Sequence record: MZ501075
DNA: 64,000 nucleotides
Strand: one strand, 5' to 3'
Origin: Escherichia phage IrisVonRoten
How positions within the stretch are numbered: position 1 is the first letter of the stretch; every line of letters starts with the position of its first letter. Position numbers and translations under genes: made by a program. Positions 1,971 through 16,296 of the stretch are shown here, piece after piece. The notes under the pieces are model-generated. The model was given only the letters and a program-made list of their open reading frames with translations, ran no database searches and had not been told where the DNA came from.

Positions 1971-2645
1971 ATGGGTCGACAAAAGCTAACAATAAAAGAT
2001 ATAAATATTAGATTAGCTGATCGTGGAATCCAAATTGTCGGTGAATATGTAAACCAACGTACAAAAACAGTATTTAAGTGCCAGAGAGCACACGTTTGGG
2101 AAGCAACACCACATTCTATACTCCATATGAGGAGAGGTTGTCCGCACTGCTCCAATAATACAATATCGTTAGATGAAGTTAGTAACAGAATATCTAATAT
2201 AGGGTATACTCTGTTAAGCAGCTATACTAATGCTAAAACAAAACTACATCTACGCTGCAATAATGGGCATGACTGTTTCATTACCTTAGATGGATTGACT
2301 CAAGGTAAAAGATGTCCTTATTGTTCTCTTAAGTGGGAGAATGGCGGATTCCTCTATATCATGTCCTCCTCTAGTGGTACTAAAGTAGGCATAAGCTTAT
2401 ACCCTGAGAAACGGCTGAATGAAGTTAAAAGAGAATCTGGATTTTCTGACCTATACTTGTTCACCATGTATCATCTGCCAGATAGAGAGACTGCTTTAGA
2501 TTTAGAAAAGGAAGTTCACAGAGAATATTATAATAAAAACTGTGGGTTTTCTAATTTTACGGGAAGCACAGAATTTTTTAATGTTGCTCCTGAGGACATA
2601 GTAATCTTTCTAAGTAGCTTTGGATTGGAGGAGTATGGCCACTAA
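1971..2645 (+). CDS. putative homing endonuclease, T5orf172/GIY-YIG-like catalytic domain with two N-terminal Cys-rich modules
   Basis: 224 aa; two repeated modules ending CPHCS / CPYCS; C-terminal GFLYIM..KVGIS..EKRLNE..TEFF resembles T5orf172-type GIY-YIG-like domain; own promoter and RBS. Confidence 0.5.
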   Translation: MGRQKLTIKDINIRLADRGIQIVGEYVNQRTKTVFKCQRAHVWEATPHSILHMRRGCPHCSNNTISLDEVSNRISNIGYTLLSSYTNAKTKLHLRCNNGHDCFITLDGLTQGKRCPYCSLKWENGGFLYIMSSSSGTKVGISLYPEKRLNEVKRESGFSDLYLFTMYHLPDRETALDLEKEVHREYYNKNCGFSNFTGSTEFFNVAPEDIVIFLSSFGLEEYGH

Positions 2646-3072
2646 TACTAAGTACAAACGTGATGCCATTTCCATAATGAGGGATGGTATAAAATCTAGG
2701 TATAGTAAGGATGGTTGCTGTGCTATATGTGGTAGTAGTGAAGACCTAGAACTTCATCATTATCATACTATATCTCAGCTAATAAAAAAATTTGCTAAAG
2801 AACTCCAGCTGGATTTCACTGATGAGAATATCGTCCTTTCAAATAGGGAAGCATTCTACAAGAAATATGAGCATGAGTTAGTTAGGGACGTGGTAACATT
2901 GTGCCAGCACCATCACCAACTATTACATAAGGTTTACACGAAAGAACCTCCCTTATTTTCTGCTAATAAGCAAAAAGCGTGGGTTCAAAAGCAGAAAGAC
3001 AAAATACAGAATCCTCAAGAAAAGACACAAGTCAAGACTGAAACAAAATCAGGATTCGCAAGGTTCTTATAA
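2635..3072 (+). CDS. HNH homing endonuclease
   Basis: CCAICGSSEDLELHHYH ... LCQHHHQLLH (HNH-type motifs); strong RBS GGAGGAG before ATG at 2635 (track ORF begins at upstream TTG 2620). Confidence 0.6.
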   Translation: MATNTKYKRDAISIMRDGIKSRYSKDGCCAICGSSEDLELHHYHTISQLIKKFAKELQLDFTDENIVLSNREAFYKKYEHELVRDVVTLCQHHHQLLHKVYTKEPPLFSANKQKAWVQKQKDKIQNPQEKTQVKTETKSGFARFL

Positions 3073-8661: not shown

Positions 8662-10059
8662 ATGTCTTTACAACTATTACGTAATACTCGAATCTTCGTG
8701 TCTACGGTTAAGACTGGTCATAATAAGACCAACACGCAAGAGATTCTAGTTCAGGATGATATTTCTTGGGGTCAGGACAGTAACTCAACAGATATTACTG
8801 TTAATGAAGCTGGTCCGCGTCCAACTCGTGGTTCTAAACGTTTTAATGACTCTTTAAACGCGGCTGAGTGGAGTTTCTCTACTTACATCCTGCCCTATAT
8901 CAATAAAGATGATCAGAAGCAAATCGTTCCTGACTATATGTTATGGCATGCACTTTCTAGTGGTAAAGCTATTAACTTAGAAGGTAATACAGGGGCACAC
9001 AATAACGAAGCTAACTTCATGGTTAACTTCAAAGATAACTCCTACCATGAGTTAGCAATGTTACATATTTATATTCTGACTGATAAAGCATGGAGTTATA
9101 TCGATTCCTGTCAGATTAATCAGGCAGAAGTTAACGTTGATATCGAAGATATTGGCCGTGTAACTTGGTCTGGTAATGGTAATCAGCTCATTCCTCTGGA
9201 TGCGCAACCATTTGACCCAGATGAGTTAGGTATTGATGATGAAACTTATATGACTATCCAGGGTTCTTATATTAAGAACAAACTAACGATTTTGAAGATC
9301 AAAGACATGGATACCAATAAGTCTTATGATATTCCTATTACTGGTGGTACTTTCACTATTAATAACAACATCACGTACCTAACCCCGAATATTATGTCTC
9401 GTGTTAATATTCCAATTGGTTCATTTACTGGTGCTTTTGAATTAACTGGTTCATTAACTGCTTATCTGAATGATAAGTCTCTTGGTTCTATGGAGCTGTA
9501 TAAAGATCTTATCAAAACTCTGAAGGTAGTTAACCGCTTCGAAATTGCTCTAGTACTTGGTGGTGAATACGATGAAGAACGTCCTGCGGCTATTCTGGTA
9601 GCTAAACAAGCACACGTTAATACTCCTACTATTGAAACTGATGATGTACTTGGTACTTCAGTAGAGTTTAAAGCTATTCCATCTGATCTGGATGCTGGTG
9701 ACGAAGGTTACTTAGGCTTCTCTAGTAAATATACCAAAACAACTATTAATAACTTGATTGTTAATGGTGATGGTGCTACTAATGCTGTAACTGCAATTAC
9801 TGTTAAATCTGCTGGTGATGCTACTACAGTAAATAACTCGGCTACTCTTCAAATGAGTGTTGAAGTTACTCCTTCTTCCGCAAAGAATAAGGAAGTTACT
9901 TGGGCTATCACTGCCGGTGATGCAGCTACAATTGATCCAGAATCTGGCCTATTAACTGCGGACACCACTAAAACTGGTGAAGTAACTGTAGAAGCTACTG
10001 CTAAAGATGGTTCTGGAGTTAAAGGTACTAAACAGATTACTGTAACAGCAGGTGGCTAA
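8662..10059 (+). CDS. major tail tube protein (pb6-like) with C-terminal Ig-like (Big_2-type) domain
   Basis: 465 aa; C-terminal TWAITAGDAATIDPESGLLTADTTKTGEVTVEATAKDGSG resembles Big_2 Ig-like domain; size as T5 pb6. Confidence 0.75.
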   Translation: MSLQLLRNTRIFVSTVKTGHNKTNTQEILVQDDISWGQDSNSTDITVNEAGPRPTRGSKRFNDSLNAAEWSFSTYILPYINKDDQKQIVPDYMLWHALSSGKAINLEGNTGAHNNEANFMVNFKDNSYHELAMLHIYILTDKAWSYIDSCQINQAEVNVDIEDIGRVTWSGNGNQLIPLDAQPFDPDELGIDDETYMTIQGSYIKNKLTILKIKDMDTNKSYDIPITGGTFTINNNITYLTPNIMSRVNIPIGSFTGAFELTGSLTAYLNDKSLGSMELYKDLIKTLKVVNRFEIALVLGGEYDEERPAAILVAKQAHVNTPTIETDDVLGTSVEFKAIPSDLDAGDEGYLGFSSKYTKTTINNLIVNGDGATNAVTAITVKSAGDATTVNNSATLQMSVEVTPSSAKNKEVTWAITAGDAATIDPESGLLTADTTKTGEVTVEATAKDGSGVKGTKQITVTAGG

Positions 10060-10063
10060 TTAA

Positions 10064-10966
10064 ATGTACTACTCTCTAATGAGAGAGTCAAAAGTTATAG
10101 TTGAGTATGATGGTAGGGCATTTCATTTTGATGCCCTATCAAACTATGATGTACAAACCTCCTACGAAGAATTTAAGACTCTTCGTAGGACTATTCATCG
10201 TAGAACTAACTATGCAGACTCTATTATAAATGCTCAAACTCCTTCTTCTATCTCTCTAGCAGTAAATTTTAGTAATACGCTTACCGAAGCTAATTTCTTC
10301 GAATGGCTAGGTTTTGATAGAAAAGGTAATACTTTCTTACTACCACTATATAGTAACAATATTGAACCTATTATGTTTAATATCTATATAGTAAATAAAG
10401 ATAATAACTGTGTATATTTTGAGAACTGCTATGTATCTACTGTAGATTTTTCTTTGGATAAGAATATACCAATTCTTAACGTTGGTATTGAGTCAGGGAA
10501 ATTCTCCGAGGTATCTACATATAGAGAAGCAGCTTCTATTATACAAGGTGAAGCAATGTCTTATAGCCCGGTAATAGTTTCTACTAACGGTAGCATCTTA
10601 CCTGGCCTTATTTCCGCCTCTTTATCTTTTCAACAGCAATGCTCTTGGAGAGAAGATAAGAGTGTTTTTGATATAAATAAAATCTATAATAATAAAAGAG
10701 CCTATGTAAATGAAATGAATGCTTCAGCAACCATTTCTCTATATTACTTAAAACGTTTTGCTGGAGATATGGTTTACAATATCGAACCAGAGACCGATGT
10801 ACCTTTAAATATAAGAAATAATAATATTTCTATAGATTTTCCTTTAGCACGTATTACAAAACGCCTAGATTTCTCAGATGTGTATAAAGTTGAGTGGGAT
10901 ATTATACCTACTGCTTCTTCAGACCCAGTGAGAATAGATTTCTTTGGAGAAATTAAAAATGATTAA
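10064..10966 (+). CDS. tail-associated protein of unknown function (T5 p140-like)
   Basis: 300 aa; AT-rich codon usage; position between tube and chaperone genes. Confidence 0.3.
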   Translation: MYYSLMRESKVIVEYDGRAFHFDALSNYDVQTSYEEFKTLRRTIHRRTNYADSIINAQTPSSISLAVNFSNTLTEANFFEWLGFDRKGNTFLLPLYSNNIEPIMFNIYIVNKDNNCVYFENCYVSTVDFSLDKNIPILNVGIESGKFSEVSTYREAASIIQGEAMSYSPVIVSTNGSILPGLISASLSFQQQCSWREDKSVFDINKIYNNKRAYVNEMNASATISLYYLKRFAGDMVYNIEPETDVPLNIRNNNISIDFPLARITKRLDFSDVYKVEWDIIPTASSDPVRIDFFGEIKND

Positions 10967-11363
10967 TTTAAAAGATATTACTCTTGATACCCGCACTATT
11001 ACTCTTTCATACCCAGGTATGCCGAACTTTAAGCTAGAACTTAACTATATGTCTCGTGCTACCTCTAAACGTGTTATTTCTTCTGCTAAACGTGACGAAT
11101 GGGTTAATGGTACGCTGATACAAGTACAGGATGACGATAAGTTTATTGAAGCTTTCGTTGATGCTGCAATTAAAGGTTGGACTGGTTTGACTGTAGGCGA
11201 CGTTGAAAAGCTGATGCTGATTGAAACAGATGCTGATCCTACTACTGAAGTTCCATTTAGTCGTGATAATGCTGTAATGCTTATGCAGAACTCTGCTGCG
11301 TTTGATTCTTGGATCAACCAGACAGTGTTCCACCTCGACACTTTTCGTAGCTCAAAAGCGTAA
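10959..11363 (+). CDS. putative tape-measure chaperone (gpG-like)
   Basis: ~134 aa from ATG 10959 (track ORF begins at TTG 10944); position upstream of tape measure; overlaps next ORF in another frame. Confidence 0.35.
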   Translation: MINLKDITLDTRTITLSYPGMPNFKLELNYMSRATSKRVISSAKRDEWVNGTLIQVQDDDKFIEAFVDAAIKGWTGLTVGDVEKLMLIETDADPTTEVPFSRDNAVMLMQNSAAFDSWINQTVFHLDTFRSSKA

Positions 11364-11793
11364 AGAACTACTAGATGCTGTTGCTGATTTTGCCGATAAG
11401 TGTATTAAAAGCTCAGCATCTAAAATGACTAAACAACAATATTTAATACTTTGTGAGTCAATGGGTATAGAACCTGATCCTAAGGCTATGCCTGTTGAAC
11501 TTGAAGACTTTCCACCTATTGTAGCTATTAGTATGAATATTTATAATAGTCTAGTTGACTGTTTCATACCTGGTGACTTTCCTATATTTATAGGTAAAGA
11601 CAAAGCTGCTTTAGGTGTTTTATTTGATATTTATGGGATTACTGATCCTATAGAGAAAGAATTTGTTCTACACATTATCAATATATTTGATGCTAAAGCT
11701 GTAGATGCTGCACGTAAACGTGCTGAGAAGCATAAACCGCAAAACGGAAGGATTCCTAACGTTAAGCCACATGCTAGATCTCGTGCACGGTAA
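11302..11793 (+). CDS. putative tape-measure chaperone extension (gpT-like) or independent small tail protein
   Basis: 163-aa ORF opening in the +1 frame ~60 nt before the stop of the preceding ORF; no convincing own RBS at the TTG start. Confidence 0.3.
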   Translation: MILGSTRQCSTSTLFVAQKRKELLDAVADFADKCIKSSASKMTKQQYLILCESMGIEPDPKAMPVELEDFPPIVAISMNIYNSLVDCFIPGDFPIFIGKDKAALGVLFDIYGITDPIEKEFVLHIINIFDAKAVDAARKRAEKHKPQNGRIPNVKPHARSRAR

Positions 11794-11829
11794 AAGTTTC
11801 CTCCAATGGGGCGTTCCACGATGAGGCTT

Positions 11830-11861
11830 GGCTCTGGGTGATATGCCCAGAGCCTTTTTTA
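11830..11861 (+). terminator. rho-independent terminator
   Basis: GGCTCTGGG-7nt-CCCAGAGCC followed by TTTTTT. Confidence 0.65.
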
Positions 11862-11887
11862 TTTATAAACATATAGGTTGGTATAGT

Positions 11888-12640
11888 ATGGGAAAGAAGA
11901 TTACTAAACAGGATAGAGAGTCTCAGATAAGCAACATTTGCAATGATAAAAATTTATCCTTTGTTGGCTGGATAGGTGAGTACACTAATATTAAAAGCAC
12001 CCTTACACTTAAGTGTAATAAATGTTATTACACCTGGTCTCCTAGGTTGGATAACTTTTTACGGATTACTGCCCAAAAATGCCCTGCATGCGCAGGCAAA
12101 GCTAGATGGACGAAGGAAGAAAGAGAAGAACAAATAAAAAGTAAGTGTGCCGAGAAAGGATATAACTTTCTATCTTGGTCTTCCACCTATATTAATAAAG
12201 ATTCTAAGATTATACTTAAATGTTTAAAAGATGGTTGTATCTGGGATGTGTCTATACACCATTTTATTAATCACGATACAGGGTGTCCTGATTGTGCTTC
12301 AGGAGGATTTAATCCTAATATACCAGCTACTTTTTATATACAGAAATTAACGTATCAAGGGACTCACTTTCTAAAATTTGGGATCACTGGTAAGGATGTA
12401 CTAGAGAGAATGAGGCAGCAAAGCAATAAATCACTATGCGAGCACTCGGTAATTTTTTCTCATACTTTTTCTTATGGTTCTATGGCTAGGGGGCTAGAAA
12501 AAGTAGTAAAGGACTCAGTAAACACAGGAGTATTAGATAAACATATCCTTCCAGATGGGTACACCGAAACTTGTCACTACTCTGAGCTAGAAACTATACT
12601 ATCTTTAACTAATAGTTTTATACAGGAAAACATTAGATGA
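11888..12640 (+). CDS. putative homing endonuclease, T5orf172/GIY-YIG-like (paralog of 1971-2645)
   Basis: two N-terminal Cys-rich modules (KCPACAG, GCPDCAS) aligning with those of ORF 1971-2645; C-terminal FYIQKL..FLKFGITGKDVLERMRQ; inserted between chaperone genes and tape measure; stop overlaps tape measure start. Confidence 0.5.
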   Translation: MGKKITKQDRESQISNICNDKNLSFVGWIGEYTNIKSTLTLKCNKCYYTWSPRLDNFLRITAQKCPACAGKARWTKEEREEQIKSKCAEKGYNFLSWSSTYINKDSKIILKCLKDGCIWDVSIHHFINHDTGCPDCASGGFNPNIPATFYIQKLTYQGTHFLKFGITGKDVLERMRQQSNKSLCEHSVIFSHTFSYGSMARGLEKVVKDSVNTGVLDKHILPDGYTETCHYSELETILSLTNSFIQENIR

Positions 12641-15600
12641 CTGATAAGCTAATACGAGAATTACTAATAGATGTTAAACAGAAAGGGGCAACCCGTACTG
12701 CAAAGTCTATTGAAAACGTATCTGATGCGTTGGAAAACGCTGCTGCTGCTTCCGAACTGACAAATGAGCAGTTAGGTAAAATGCCCAAAACCCTTTACTC
12801 CATTGAGAGGGCAGCGGATAGAGCAGCAAAAAGTCTTACTAAAATGCAAGCTAGTAGGGGTATGGCTGGTATCACTAAATCCATTGATGGTATTGGTGAT
12901 AAGCTAGATTACCTGGCTATCCAACTTATTGAAGTAACAGATAAACTAGAAATTGGATTCGATGGAGTTTCTAGATCTGTTAAAACAATGGGTAATGATG
13001 TTGCAGCTGCAACAGAAAAAGTCCAGGATAGATTATACGATACTAATAGGGCTTTAGGCGGTACATCTAGAGGGTTTAATGACACTGCTGGTGCTGCCGG
13101 TAGGGCTTCTAGAGCTTTAGGTAATACTTCCGGTTCCGCACGCGGAGCTACTCGTGACTTTGCAGCAATGGCTAAGATCGGCGGTAGGTTACCTATTATG
13201 TATGCAGCTCTTGCTTCTAACGTATTCGTCCTACAGACTGCTTTTGAGAGCCTAAAAGTAGGTGACCAGCTAAATAGGCTGGAACAGTTCGGCACTATTG
13301 TTGGCACCATGACAGGTACACCGGTACAGACACTAGCTTTATCACTACAAAACGCTACTAATGGTGCTATATCCTTTGAAGAGGCTATGCGTCAAGCATC
13401 CTCTGCTTCCGCTTATGGATTTGACAGCGAACAACTAGAGCAGTTCGGTTTAGTAGCACGTCGTGCGGCTGCTGTTCTTGGTGTTGATATGACTGACGCA
13501 CTTAACCGTGTAATTAAGGGTGTATCAAAGCAAGAAATCGAACTTCTGGATGAACTTGGTGTTACTATTCGTCTTAACGATGCGTATGAAAATTACGTTA
13601 AACAATTAAATGCTACCAGTACAGGTATTAAATATACTGTAGATAGTTTAACTACATACCAGAAACAACAAGCGTATGCAAATGAAGTTATTGCAGAGTC
13701 TACTCGTAGATTTGGATACCTAGATGATGCTCTTAAGGCAACCTCTTGGGAACAATTTGCTGCCAATGCTAACTCAGCTCTAAGAAGTTTACAACAAAGT
13801 GCTGCAACATACTTAAATCCTGTTATGGATACCCTTAATACTTTCTTATACCAAACTAAAGCTTCTCAGATGAGAGTTTCTGCAATGGCACGTAGTGCAT
13901 CCGCTAAAACTACTCCATCCGAAAACGTTACAGCTTTAATAGAGAATGCTGTAGGGGCACGAGAAGATCTAGATACGTATCTTAAAGAAAGCGAAGAACG
14001 TGTTAAGAAAGCTCAAGAGCTTAAGCAGAAATTGGATGATCTTAAGGCAAAACAGGCGGCTTCTGCTCCTGTCGCTAATGCTTTTGCTTCCCTCAGTATT
14101 GGGGGTGATGAGAGTAATAAGTTAGTAGCACAACTCACTAATGAATATATTCGTCAAAACAAAGAACTAGAAGAACGCGCCAAAACTGAGAAGGTTCTAA
14201 GACAAGCGGTACAGGATACTGGAGAAGCTCTATTACGTAACGGCAAACTAGCTGAGCAGTTAGGCGCTAAGATGAAGTATGCTGCTACTGCTGTTCCAGG
14301 AGACAAAGGAGTATTCGAAGTTGATCCTAATAACCTCAAAGCTGTATCAGAGATACAGAAGAACTTTGATTTTCTGAAGAAAAGCTCTAGTGATACTGCA
14401 AATAACATAAGAATGGCGGCAAGTAGTATTACTAACGCTAAAAAGGCCTCTAGTGACCTAAATAGTGTTGTAAAAGCAGTAGAAGATACTTCTAAAGTAA
14501 CCGGGCAAAGTGCAGATACTCTAGTTAAGAACCTAAATCTAGGTTTCTCAAGCCTAGATCAAATGAAGAATGCTCAGAAAGGCCTAGCAGAATATGTAGC
14601 TGTTATGGATAAGGATGAGCAGAACGCGCTAGAAGTAGCTAAACGTAAGGACGAAGTTTACACTCGGACTAAGGATAAGGCTAAAGCAGAAGCAGCAGCT
14701 AGAGAGGTATTACTACGACAGCAGCAGGAACAGCTTACGGCCGCAAAAGCGTTGCTAGCTATTAACCCTAATGATCCGGAAGCATTAAAACAAGTAGCTA
14801 AGATAGAGACAGAAATTCTTAATACTAAAGCCCAGGGATTCGAAAATGCTAAGAAGACTAAAGACTATACTGATAAGATTCTTGGTGTAGATCGTGAGAT
14901 AGCTCTTCTGAATGACCGTACTATGACGAGTACTCAGTATCGTTTGGCGCAGTTAAGACTAGAGCTGCAGTTAGAGCAGGAAAAAACGGAATTATACTCT
15001 AAACAAGCGGATGGTCAAGCTAAAGTAGAACAGTCAAGGCGTGCTCAGGCACAGATAAGTAGAGAGCTATGGGAAGCAGAAAATCAGGCAACTGCCTCAC
15101 ATGTGTCAGCCCTCATGGATGCACTAGAAGTCAGCCAAACACAAAGAAATGTTACTGGCCAATCCCAAATTCTTACGGAAAGACTATCCATTCTGCAGCA
15201 ACAGCTGGAACTATCTAAGGGTAATACGGAAGAGGAGCTTAAGTATCGTAATGAGATTTATAAAACTGCTGCCGCTTTAGAGCAACTTAGAAAGCAGAGA
15301 GAAAGTCAGATGCAGCAACAGGTAGGATCTTCTGTAGGTGCTGTATACACCCCTACTACTGGGTTAATCGGGGAAGATAAAGATTTTGCTGATATGCAAA
15401 ATAGAATGGCTTCTTATGATCAGGCAATCTCTAAGCTATCTGAATTAAATTCTGAAGCAACTGCAGTAGCACAAAGTATGGGTAACTTAACTAATGCTAT
15501 GATTCAGTTCTCAATGAAATCACTAGATACTACTTCCACGATCGCAGCAGGTATGCAAGCTGTATCTTCTGTGATTCAGTATAGTGCTAGTCAGCAGGTT

Positions 15601-16296
15601 AGTGCAATTGATCAGGCTATTGCAGCAGAACAGAAACGTGATGGTAAATCAGAAGCATCCAAAGCTAAGTTGAAGAAGTTGGAAGCTGAAAAGCTGAAGA
15701 TTCAACAAGACGCAGCTAAGAAGCAGATTATCATCCAAACTGCAGTAGCTGTAATGCAGGCGGCAACAGCTGTTCCATACCCGTTCTCTATTCCTTTGAT
15801 GGTGGCGGCAGGTTTGGCGGGTGCCTTAGCTCTTGCTCAAGCATCTTCTGCATCTGGTATGTCAAGTATTGCTGATTCTGGAGCGGATACAACTAGTTAC
15901 CTAACCTTAGGAGAGCGTCAGAAGAATATAGATGTGTCTATGTCTGCTAATGCTGGTGAATTATCTTATATCCGTGGTGATAAAGGCATAGGCGGTGCTA
16001 ACTCTTTCGTTCCTCGTGCTGAGGGTGGTAATATGTACCCTGGGGTTAGCTATCAAATGGGTGAGCATGGTACAGAAGTAGTTACCCCTATGGTTCCTAT
16101 GAAAGCTACGCCTAATGATGAGCTAAAAACCTCATCTAACTCAACTTCAGGAAGACCTATCATCCTGAATATTAGTGCTATGGATGCTGCAAGTTTTAGA
16201 GAGTTTGCTTCTAGTAATAGTGGTGCTCTAAGAGACGCAGTAGAATTAGCTCTGAACGAGAACGGTGCTAGTCTGAAAACATTAGGAAATTCTTAA
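12637..16296 (+). CDS. tail tape measure protein (pb2-like)
   Basis: 1219 aa, long helical/coiled-coil low-complexity protein; identical length to T5 pb2 as recalled; optimal codon bias. Confidence 0.9.
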   Translation: MTDKLIRELLIDVKQKGATRTAKSIENVSDALENAAAASELTNEQLGKMPKTLYSIERAADRAAKSLTKMQASRGMAGITKSIDGIGDKLDYLAIQLIEVTDKLEIGFDGVSRSVKTMGNDVAAATEKVQDRLYDTNRALGGTSRGFNDTAGAAGRASRALGNTSGSARGATRDFAAMAKIGGRLPIMYAALASNVFVLQTAFESLKVGDQLNRLEQFGTIVGTMTGTPVQTLALSLQNATNGAISFEEAMRQASSASAYGFDSEQLEQFGLVARRAAAVLGVDMTDALNRVIKGVSKQEIELLDELGVTIRLNDAYENYVKQLNATSTGIKYTVDSLTTYQKQQAYANEVIAESTRRFGYLDDALKATSWEQFAANANSALRSLQQSAATYLNPVMDTLNTFLYQTKASQMRVSAMARSASAKTTPSENVTALIENAVGAREDLDTYLKESEERVKKAQELKQKLDDLKAKQAASAPVANAFASLSIGGDESNKLVAQLTNEYIRQNKELEERAKTEKVLRQAVQDTGEALLRNGKLAEQLGAKMKYAATAVPGDKGVFEVDPNNLKAVSEIQKNFDFLKKSSSDTANNIRMAASSITNAKKASSDLNSVVKAVEDTSKVTGQSADTLVKNLNLGFSSLDQMKNAQKGLAEYVAVMDKDEQNALEVAKRKDEVYTRTKDKAKAEAAAREVLLRQQQEQLTAAKALLAINPNDPEALKQVAKIETEILNTKAQGFENAKKTKDYTDKILGVDREIALLNDRTMTSTQYRLAQLRLELQLEQEKTELYSKQADGQAKVEQSRRAQAQISRELWEAENQATASHVSALMDALEVSQTQRNVTGQSQILTERLSILQQQLELSKGNTEEELKYRNEIYKTAAALEQLRKQRESQMQQQVGSSVGAVYTPTTGLIGEDKDFADMQNRMASYDQAISKLSELNSEATAVAQSMGNLTNAMIQFSMKSLDTTSTIAAGMQAVSSVIQYSASQQVSAIDQAIAAEQKRDGKSEASKAKLKKLEAEKLKIQQDAAKKQIIIQTAVAVMQAATAVPYPFSIPLMVAAGLAGALALAQASSASGMSSIADSGADTTSYLTLGERQKNIDVSMSANAGELSYIRGDKGIGGANSFVPRAEGGNMYPGVSYQMGEHGTEVVTPMVPMKATPNDELKTSSNSTSGRPIILNISAMDAASFREFASSNSGALRDAVELALNENGASLKTLGNS

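Follow-up and report, generated by a model that had tools for sequence, protein, structure and literature searches.

The reading frame at 11888-12640 of the window, the 64,000-nt stretch of Escherichia phage IrisVonRoten (sequence record MZ501075) that was analysed as a whole, is very probably a free-standing homing endonuclease gene of the T5orf172 class within the GIY-YIG superfamily, and represents gene T5.141 of phage T5 in a different T5-like backbone. The gene is an insertion at one precise position between the tail assembly chaperone genes and the tape measure gene, is present in a small minority of T5-like phages, and is nearly identical in three backbones that have diverged from one another. 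The terminator that precedes it is older than the insertion.

RESULTS

Gene order and boundaries at the insertion locus

A megablast search of the region matched 443 T5-like phage records and showed that the window derives from a T5-like phage, with phage T5 as the best match (96.3% identity). Its gene order is that of T5 in reverse orientation: the terminase, portal, capsid, pb6 tail tube and p140 genes are followed by those for two tail assembly chaperones, the open reading frame (ORF) under study and the tape measure protein pb2 (Table 1). The original prediction had described this ORF with a strong terminator before it and an ATGA overlap of its stop codon with the tape measure start, and all three features are present.

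The ORF as mechanically defined runs from a TTG codon at 11828, although its first 60 nt are occupied by the terminator. We assign the true start to the ATG at 11888, based on the annotated length of T5.141 (250 aa) and on a Met1 that is invariant in the homologue alignment described below. The resulting protein is one residue apart from T5.141, with His219 replacing the Arg found in T5. This single difference accounts for an exact-sequence lookup that returned no match for the window protein but succeeded for T5.141.

Table 1. Features of the endonuclease locus and of the related gene elsewhere in the window
Feature	Position	Strand	Basis or remarks
Second endonuclease gene of the same family (two CapR modules plus T5orf172 domain)	1971..2645	+	Between terminase and portal genes
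Rho-independent terminator-like hairpin and T-tract, after the tail assembly chaperone genes	11830..11863	+	Ancestral, outside the insertion
Inserted segment, 773 bp	11864..12636	+	Replaces an 11-14-bp spacer (GGGAAAAATAAAAC and variants); junction alignments
Free-standing homing endonuclease gene (putative), T5.141 orthologue	11888..12640	+	250 aa plus stop
CapR-type zinc-finger module 1 (aa 1-71; Cys43, Cys46, Cys65, Cys68), predicted DNA-binding	11888..12100	+	Pfam PF21817, alignment, AF2 model
CapR-type zinc-finger module 2 (aa 72-138; Cys112, Cys117, Cys133, Cys136)	12101..12301	+	Best Pfam CapR stretch, aa 79-137
GIY-YIG-fold nuclease domain, T5orf172/MUG113 type (aa 139-250; putative)	12302..12637	+	Invariant residues
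ATGA overlap of endonuclease stop (TGA) and tape measure start (ATG)	12637..12640	+	Sequence
Tape measure protein gene pb2, 1219 aa	12637..16296	+	Rare T5-type allele in the window; 5' part co-inherited with the insert

Two CapR-type modules precede a predicted GIY-YIG nuclease domain

Pfam analysis matched the encoded protein to CapR (PF21817) in two stretches, with E = 2.1e-24 and 85.9 bits where the cutoff is 24.2, and also to DUF4379, a related treble-clef model. CapR modules feature two pairs of zinc-ligand cysteines (CxxC followed by CxC or CxxC) that are approximately 20-26 residues apart (PMC8096241), and such an arrangement occurs twice here, where C43/C46 combine with C65/C68 and C112/C117 with C133/C136. 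An alignment was built from 37 homologues that have the C-terminal domain in common; six of these cysteines (C43, C65, C68, C112, C133 and C136) are at least 90% conserved within it, and 34 of the 37 proteins match PF21817 as well.

A direct Pfam search with the ORF revealed no nuclease domain, as neither PF10544 nor PF13455 matched at E ≤ 0.1. Among the 37 homologues, T5orf172 was matched by nine and MUG113 by 10, with best E-values of 4e-7 and 2e-11, respectively. Residues G140, Y150, K163, G165, R174, G197, E204, G224, T226 and E227 are invariant throughout the alignment and, by analogy with I-TevI and Odn (PMC8263062), Y150, R174 and E227, and also E204, are predicted to be catalytic-type residues. 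On sequence grounds, we assign the domain to a divergent T5orf172 subtype that is placed via profiles and intermediate proteins rather than by a direct Pfam match. The PHROG 681 profile, annotated as ‘endonuclease’, spans the whole protein from end to end (E = 4e-68).

An AlphaFold (AF2) model computed from the 37-member alignment had a mean pLDDT of 94.6, with CapR module 1 above 90, and a pTM of 0.60, a value in line with domains strung together like beads. The model predicts a GIY-YIG alpha/beta fold at the C-terminus, in which the nuclease domain is complete and confidently folded. The family to which the protein belongs is very large: an exhaustive HMMER search (E ≤ 1e-3) retrieved 5398 cluster representatives, in which a single protein had as many as eight matched stretches, mostly CapR-type repeats. 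This size became visible only by the exhaustive approach, as a word-indexed protein search gave just five matches. The nearest relatives outside T5 share 35-46% identity with the window protein and come from T4-like coliphages, Vibrio phages and metagenomes.

The window encodes a second, distantly related endonuclease

The ORF at 1971-2645, which had been proposed as a paralogue of the same architecture, contains two CapR domains (PF21817, E = 1.5e-8), is spanned from end to end by PHROG 681 (E = 3e-59) and matches Pfam PF10544 and PF13455 directly (E = 1.5e-8 and 8.6e-9, respectively). A BLASTP comparison of the two proteins detected similarity in the zinc modules alone (E = 2e-6, 24-33% identity), whereas the C-termini did not align. 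These were connected by the C-terminal profile of the 11888-12640 protein, which matched the T5orf172 domain of the 1971-2645 protein with E = 3e-8 as a single comparison, and E = 4e-6 when all 215 ORFs of at least 60 aa in the window were searched. The shared pattern reads Y...K-G-x-T/S...R...E...TE, so that Y150, R174 and E227 line up with the Y, R and TE positions of the second protein, and no third ORF among the 215 matched the profile. The two ORFs are thus related by family and by architecture, with two CapR modules and a matching C-terminal domain, as the original prediction held, although ‘paralogous’ is apt only in this broad sense: at approximately 25-30% identity, their sequences are those of distant family members with no recent duplication between them.

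The second gene is itself variably present, as it is covered by 72 of 440 related records. The 835-bp segment at 1811-2645 is split in the window into a 66-aa ORF (1811-2011) and a 224-aa ORF that begins at 1971, while its T5 counterpart is one 834-bp gene, T5.154, that begins 12 nt past the terminase gene. A 13-bp stem-loop without a clear T-tract (1809-1840) is found straight after the terminase stop codon, 5' of the second endonuclease gene. The end of the second gene is also overlapped by a 150-aa ORF (2620-3072) with an HNH-like Cys/His motif, whose counterpart in DT57C and other T5-like phages is annotated as a ‘nicking site-specific endonuclease’ (sciA). Based on this annotation, the 2620-3072 ORF may encode the enzyme behind the genomic nicks of T5.

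The endonuclease gene is a precise insertion that most relatives lack

Insert-free phages read ...GCCCAGAGCCTTTTTTATT GGGAAAAATAAAAC ATGACTGAT... across the locus, whereas the window and T5 carry 773 bp in place of the 14-bp spacer. The insertion point lies between the T-tract of the terminator and the ATG of the tape measure gene, both of which are kept. Only four of the 443 related phage records hold the insert and all four are T5; the other 439 lack it, and insert-free records match the region in two pieces that skip the ORF. When a synthetic empty site was used as the query instead, 432 of the 443 records gave one uninterrupted alignment, at identities down to 81%. In IMG/VR, the occupied left junction was found in T5 only. 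A search with the T5.141 protein identified a third carrier, a 28.9-kb contig with a different backbone from a Logan assembly of public run ERR11594185 (here termed L007).

The locus is therefore polymorphic for presence or absence of the gene at one exact site among close relatives, in agreement with the mobile-element footprint in the structural module that had been proposed, while the same distribution rules out a conserved structural component. An Rfam search of 10500-13500 found no intron family at E ≤ 1, with only a chance-level match to Virus_CITE_1 (20 bits against an 80-bit cutoff), which indicates that the gene is free-standing; as the insert is also intergenic, an intron- or intein-encoded endonuclease was ruled out.

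The last 28 nt of the insert (12609-12636, ATAGTTTTATACAGGAAAACATTAG) loosely resemble the sequence that was replaced or abuts the insertion (CCTTTTTTATTGGGAAAAATAAAAC), and both have a purine-rich, Shine-Dalgarno-like motif about equally far from the ATG. This resemblance could have arisen by chance in AT-rich DNA or could reflect a retained ribosome-binding site of the tape measure gene. Contig L007 encodes an additional 189-aa CapR-domain ORF (contig positions 354-923) beside a terminator, between the genes for the major capsid protein and the head-tail adaptor. As nothing in the window or in T5 aligns there, this is another endonuclease insertion site.

A near-identical insert in three diverged backbones

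Over the 807 bp from the terminator to the tape measure ATG, the window differs from T5 by three SNPs (99.6% identity) and from L007 by two. Two of the changes among the three sequences are synonymous and the other is H219R. The insert thus retains at least 99.6% identity across three backbones whose own local identity is only 70-82% and, together with the precise junction, this fits a recently mobile homing endonuclease gene.

The wider region of the window is a mosaic. At 9900-11100 and beyond 15900, the window is 70-82% identical to T5 and 89-100% identical to the insert-free phage mar004NP2, while between approximately 11100 and 15000 its identity to T5 rises to 92-99.7%. From 13200 to 15000, in the central part of the tape measure gene, the identity of mar004NP2 to the window drops to 76-81%, where the two align at all, and the T5-type allele that the window carries there is otherwise nearly confined to T5. 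The mosaic breakpoints are sharp, at 9900-11100 and 15300-15900, with mar004NP2-like sequence on both sides. Within 13131-14136, 234 positions are private to the window and T5 (1500 bp compared). L007 is 99.7-100% identical to the window over the endonuclease gene, yet only ∼81% identical or unalignable from approximately 600 bp into the tape measure gene.

When the three carriers were compared with 15 insert-free loci, they were found to have in common a C at 12693 and a haplotype at 13066-13258, both to the right of the insert, whereas no private variant common to the carriers was detected in the 900 bp to its left. This one-sided linkage, weak evidence from three carriers only, fits a break-and-repair tract that started to the right of the insertion point. 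Position 12693 is a synonymous site in codon 19 of the tape measure gene, with C in all three carriers and T in 18 insert-free loci. C also occurs in three of 24 insert-free contigs (3/3 versus 3/24, Fisher p = 0.007, a statistic that ignores kinship) and is therefore no exclusive marker of the insertion. As a marker of target-site immunity, we consider this allele suggestive at most.

The terminator upstream of the gene is ancestral

The terminator reads GGCTCTGGGTGATATGCCCAGAGCC followed by TTTTTTATT and forms an 11-bp stem with seven G-C pairs. It is the top-scoring terminator-like site in the first 20 kb of the window, with a folding energy of -22 kcal/mol (z = -4.5) that none of 200 shuffled sequences equalled. 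An identical or nearly identical terminator is found in the insert-free phages SHSML-45, AKFV33, AKM_HA2021_32 and phiR2-01, and others have annotated it in T5 and in the insert-free genomes of AKFV33 and AKM_HA2021_32. In insert-free phages of two genera, Tequintavirus and Epseptimavirus, the tape measure ATG follows 11-14 nt past the T-tract, and the ∼85 nt from the chaperone stop codon to the tape measure start are nearly invariant across both genera, even though identity to the window is only 81-85% in the coding DNA on either side.

By these sequence comparisons, the terminator predates the insertion and does not belong to it. The original prediction had considered the terminator to be the gene's own and had the insertion splitting an operon of chaperone and tape measure genes. 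Neither view stands, as a terminator located just before the tape measure ATG in insert-free phages means that expression of that gene needs read-through with or without the insert, in all T5-like phages, and the regulatory puzzle that had been raised disappears. The terminator probably functions as an attenuator that holds the tape measure protein scarce relative to the tail tube protein, and the conserved intergenic stretch as a whole may be an attenuator or another regulatory element of the tape measure gene. The segment 11794-11863 folds as two adjacent hairpins, the first at ∼11796-11829 and the second being the terminator, and the same region does so in four further loci (L002, L003, L033 and L034). 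Pairing of the T-tract with the start region of the endonuclease gene was no better than in shuffled sequences (z = -1.7).

Located downstream of an existing terminator, the endonuclease gene would have inherited low expression that depends on read-through: it would be transcribed only when polymerase passes the terminator, a process on which the tape measure gene has always depended. An AGGA Shine-Dalgarno-like motif lies 9 nt upstream of the tape measure start, inside the 3' end of the endonuclease gene, and together with the ATGA overlap it may couple tape measure translation to that of the endonuclease. A sigma-70-like promoter match (TTGTCA, 18 nt, TATACT; 10 of 12 positions) is found at 12571-12600, 37 nt before the tape measure ATG. 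Promoter-like matches are no commoner here than in shuffled sequence, so we do not conclude that it feeds the tape measure gene.

DISCUSSION

A homing model and the alternatives to it

We propose that the two tandem CapR-type modules would bind a specific DNA sequence, while the C-terminal GIY-YIG-type domain would cut nearby. When a cell is infected both by a carrier and by a T5-like phage with the insert-free allele, the enzyme would cut that allele within or beside the strongly conserved region from the terminator to the tape measure start. With the insert-bearing genome as the repair template, recombination would then transfer the gene, along with a variable stretch of the adjacent tape measure gene, to the recipient. 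We found no experimental work on T5.141 in the literature, and cleavage, target and homing are inferred both for this protein and for the window copy.

The near-identity of the gene in three backbones could also result from ordinary homologous recombination of a passenger gene, and an efficient homing element with a putative target that is conserved in hundreds of phages would be expected in more than T5 and two other backbones. The rarity of the gene among sequenced T5-like phages would be consistent with an inactive or passenger remnant that once homed into an ancestor of T5 and has since spread by ordinary recombination with the tape measure allele, as would the location of the window copy within a ∼4-kb T5-type block that covers most of the tape measure gene, as in mosaic exchange. 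We consider such a remnant quite improbable, given that the ORF is intact in all three backbones, that just three substitutions separate the copies, two of them synonymous, and that the catalytic-type residues have been kept. In addition, the tract shared by L007 ends ∼600 bp into a tape measure gene that is otherwise of the common allele, which indicates that the endonuclease gene moves without the T5-type tape measure allele. A domesticated DNA-binding regulator, similar to CapR, that binds, for instance, the conserved terminator or the start of the tape measure gene and tunes late-gene expression or its own rather than acting as a mobile nuclease would suit the position of the gene, which immediately follows a conserved regulatory element. 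Autorepression is known among GIY-YIG enzymes, for example in I-TevI. Furthermore, CapR is a repressor that derives from the T5orf172 endonuclease family (PMC8096241). However, CapR is devoid of the nuclease domain, which here is modelled in full with high confidence and has the Tyr, Arg and Glu residues that are invariant in the family, and 439 of the 443 relatives keep the same terminator and tape measure arrangement without the gene, which is therefore not needed there; a purely regulatory role is very unlikely.

Another role for a nuclease of this family is conflict, where the gene would be retained for degrading the DNA of competing phages or satellites (marker exclusion, compare Odn and PLE) and gene copying would be incidental. 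Phage ICP1 does use a T5orf172 nuclease with a swapped DNA-binding domain against its satellite (PMC8263062), and the family retrieved here is both very large and modular. Conflict and homing are not mutually exclusive, but none of our data suggest a target other than the phage's own locus, and site-specific presence or absence at one conserved intergenic position is the outcome of homing, which makes a nuclease maintained mainly for conflict extremely improbable. The homing reading, which we prefer, also has a stronger form that we put forward tentatively and regard as unlikely: the enzyme would target the conserved element between the terminator and the tape measure start, or the first tape measure codons, its homing would drag tape measure alleles between T5-like phages, and it might also bind the element to modulate read-through. 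This would explain the rare T5-type pb2 allele in a non-T5 backbone and, if true, would mean that a selfish gene both drives the exchange of tail-gene alleles and regulates a structural operon.

Relationship to known systems

The closest known counterpart is T5.141 itself (YP_006969.1, ‘endonuclease’), which has the same position between T5.142 and pb2 and the same junctions, and differs in the backbone around it, which is mar004NP2-like in the window. T5orf172 homing endonuclease genes usually carry at least one CapR, DUF723 or DUF4379 zinc finger, and are abundant in T5-like phages near terminase, capsid and tape measure genes, at the boundaries of genetic exchange (Barth, Dunham & Seed 2023, PMC10448857). 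The ICP1 genes gp121, gp165 and gp174 described in that study are comparable to the window gene in that tandem CapR-type fingers precede a T5orf172/GIY-YIG domain, and in being free-standing, located beside essential structural genes and found in some close relatives but not in others. Their sequence similarity to the window gene is distant, with 26-27% identity over 97% of the length of the window protein for the ICP1 ‘tcgB putative homing endonuclease’ (tblastn), and both host lineage and insertion site differ.

Experimental precedents exist for each half of the protein. The CapR protein of PLE binds DNA sequence-specifically and needs its cysteines for this (PMC8096241); it has the zinc-finger DNA-binding module in common with the window protein, yet functions as a repressor without a nuclease domain. 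The ICP1 protein Odn has the T5orf172 nuclease domain in common; it has been shown to cut DNA in vitro, an activity that a Glu-to-Ala substitution abolishes (PMC8263062). Unlike the window protein, Odn binds DNA through a RepA_N domain and has the origin of a satellite as its target, and neither CapR nor Odn is a homing element at a tail-gene junction. The free-standing GIY-YIG endonucleases of T4-type phages (Seg proteins and I-TevI) differ in their DNA-binding modules, which in I-TevI are a single minimal zinc finger plus a helix-turn-helix, and share no detectable sequence similarity with the window protein outside the catalytic core.

Most of the differences between T5-like genomes are due to homing endonuclease genes (BF23 genome paper, PMC10644984), and the gene described here is a routine selfish element that is already annotated in the T5 reference genome and belongs to a class that has been described. 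Nevertheless, its occurrence in three backbones that have diverged, with co-inherited tracts of different size, provides a clean natural example, and a first test of homing by a T5orf172 enzyme in an E. coli phage could conveniently use T5.141. The terminator and the adjacent hairpin, conserved ahead of the tape measure gene, merit separate attention, as an attenuator that may set the stoichiometry of the tape measure protein.
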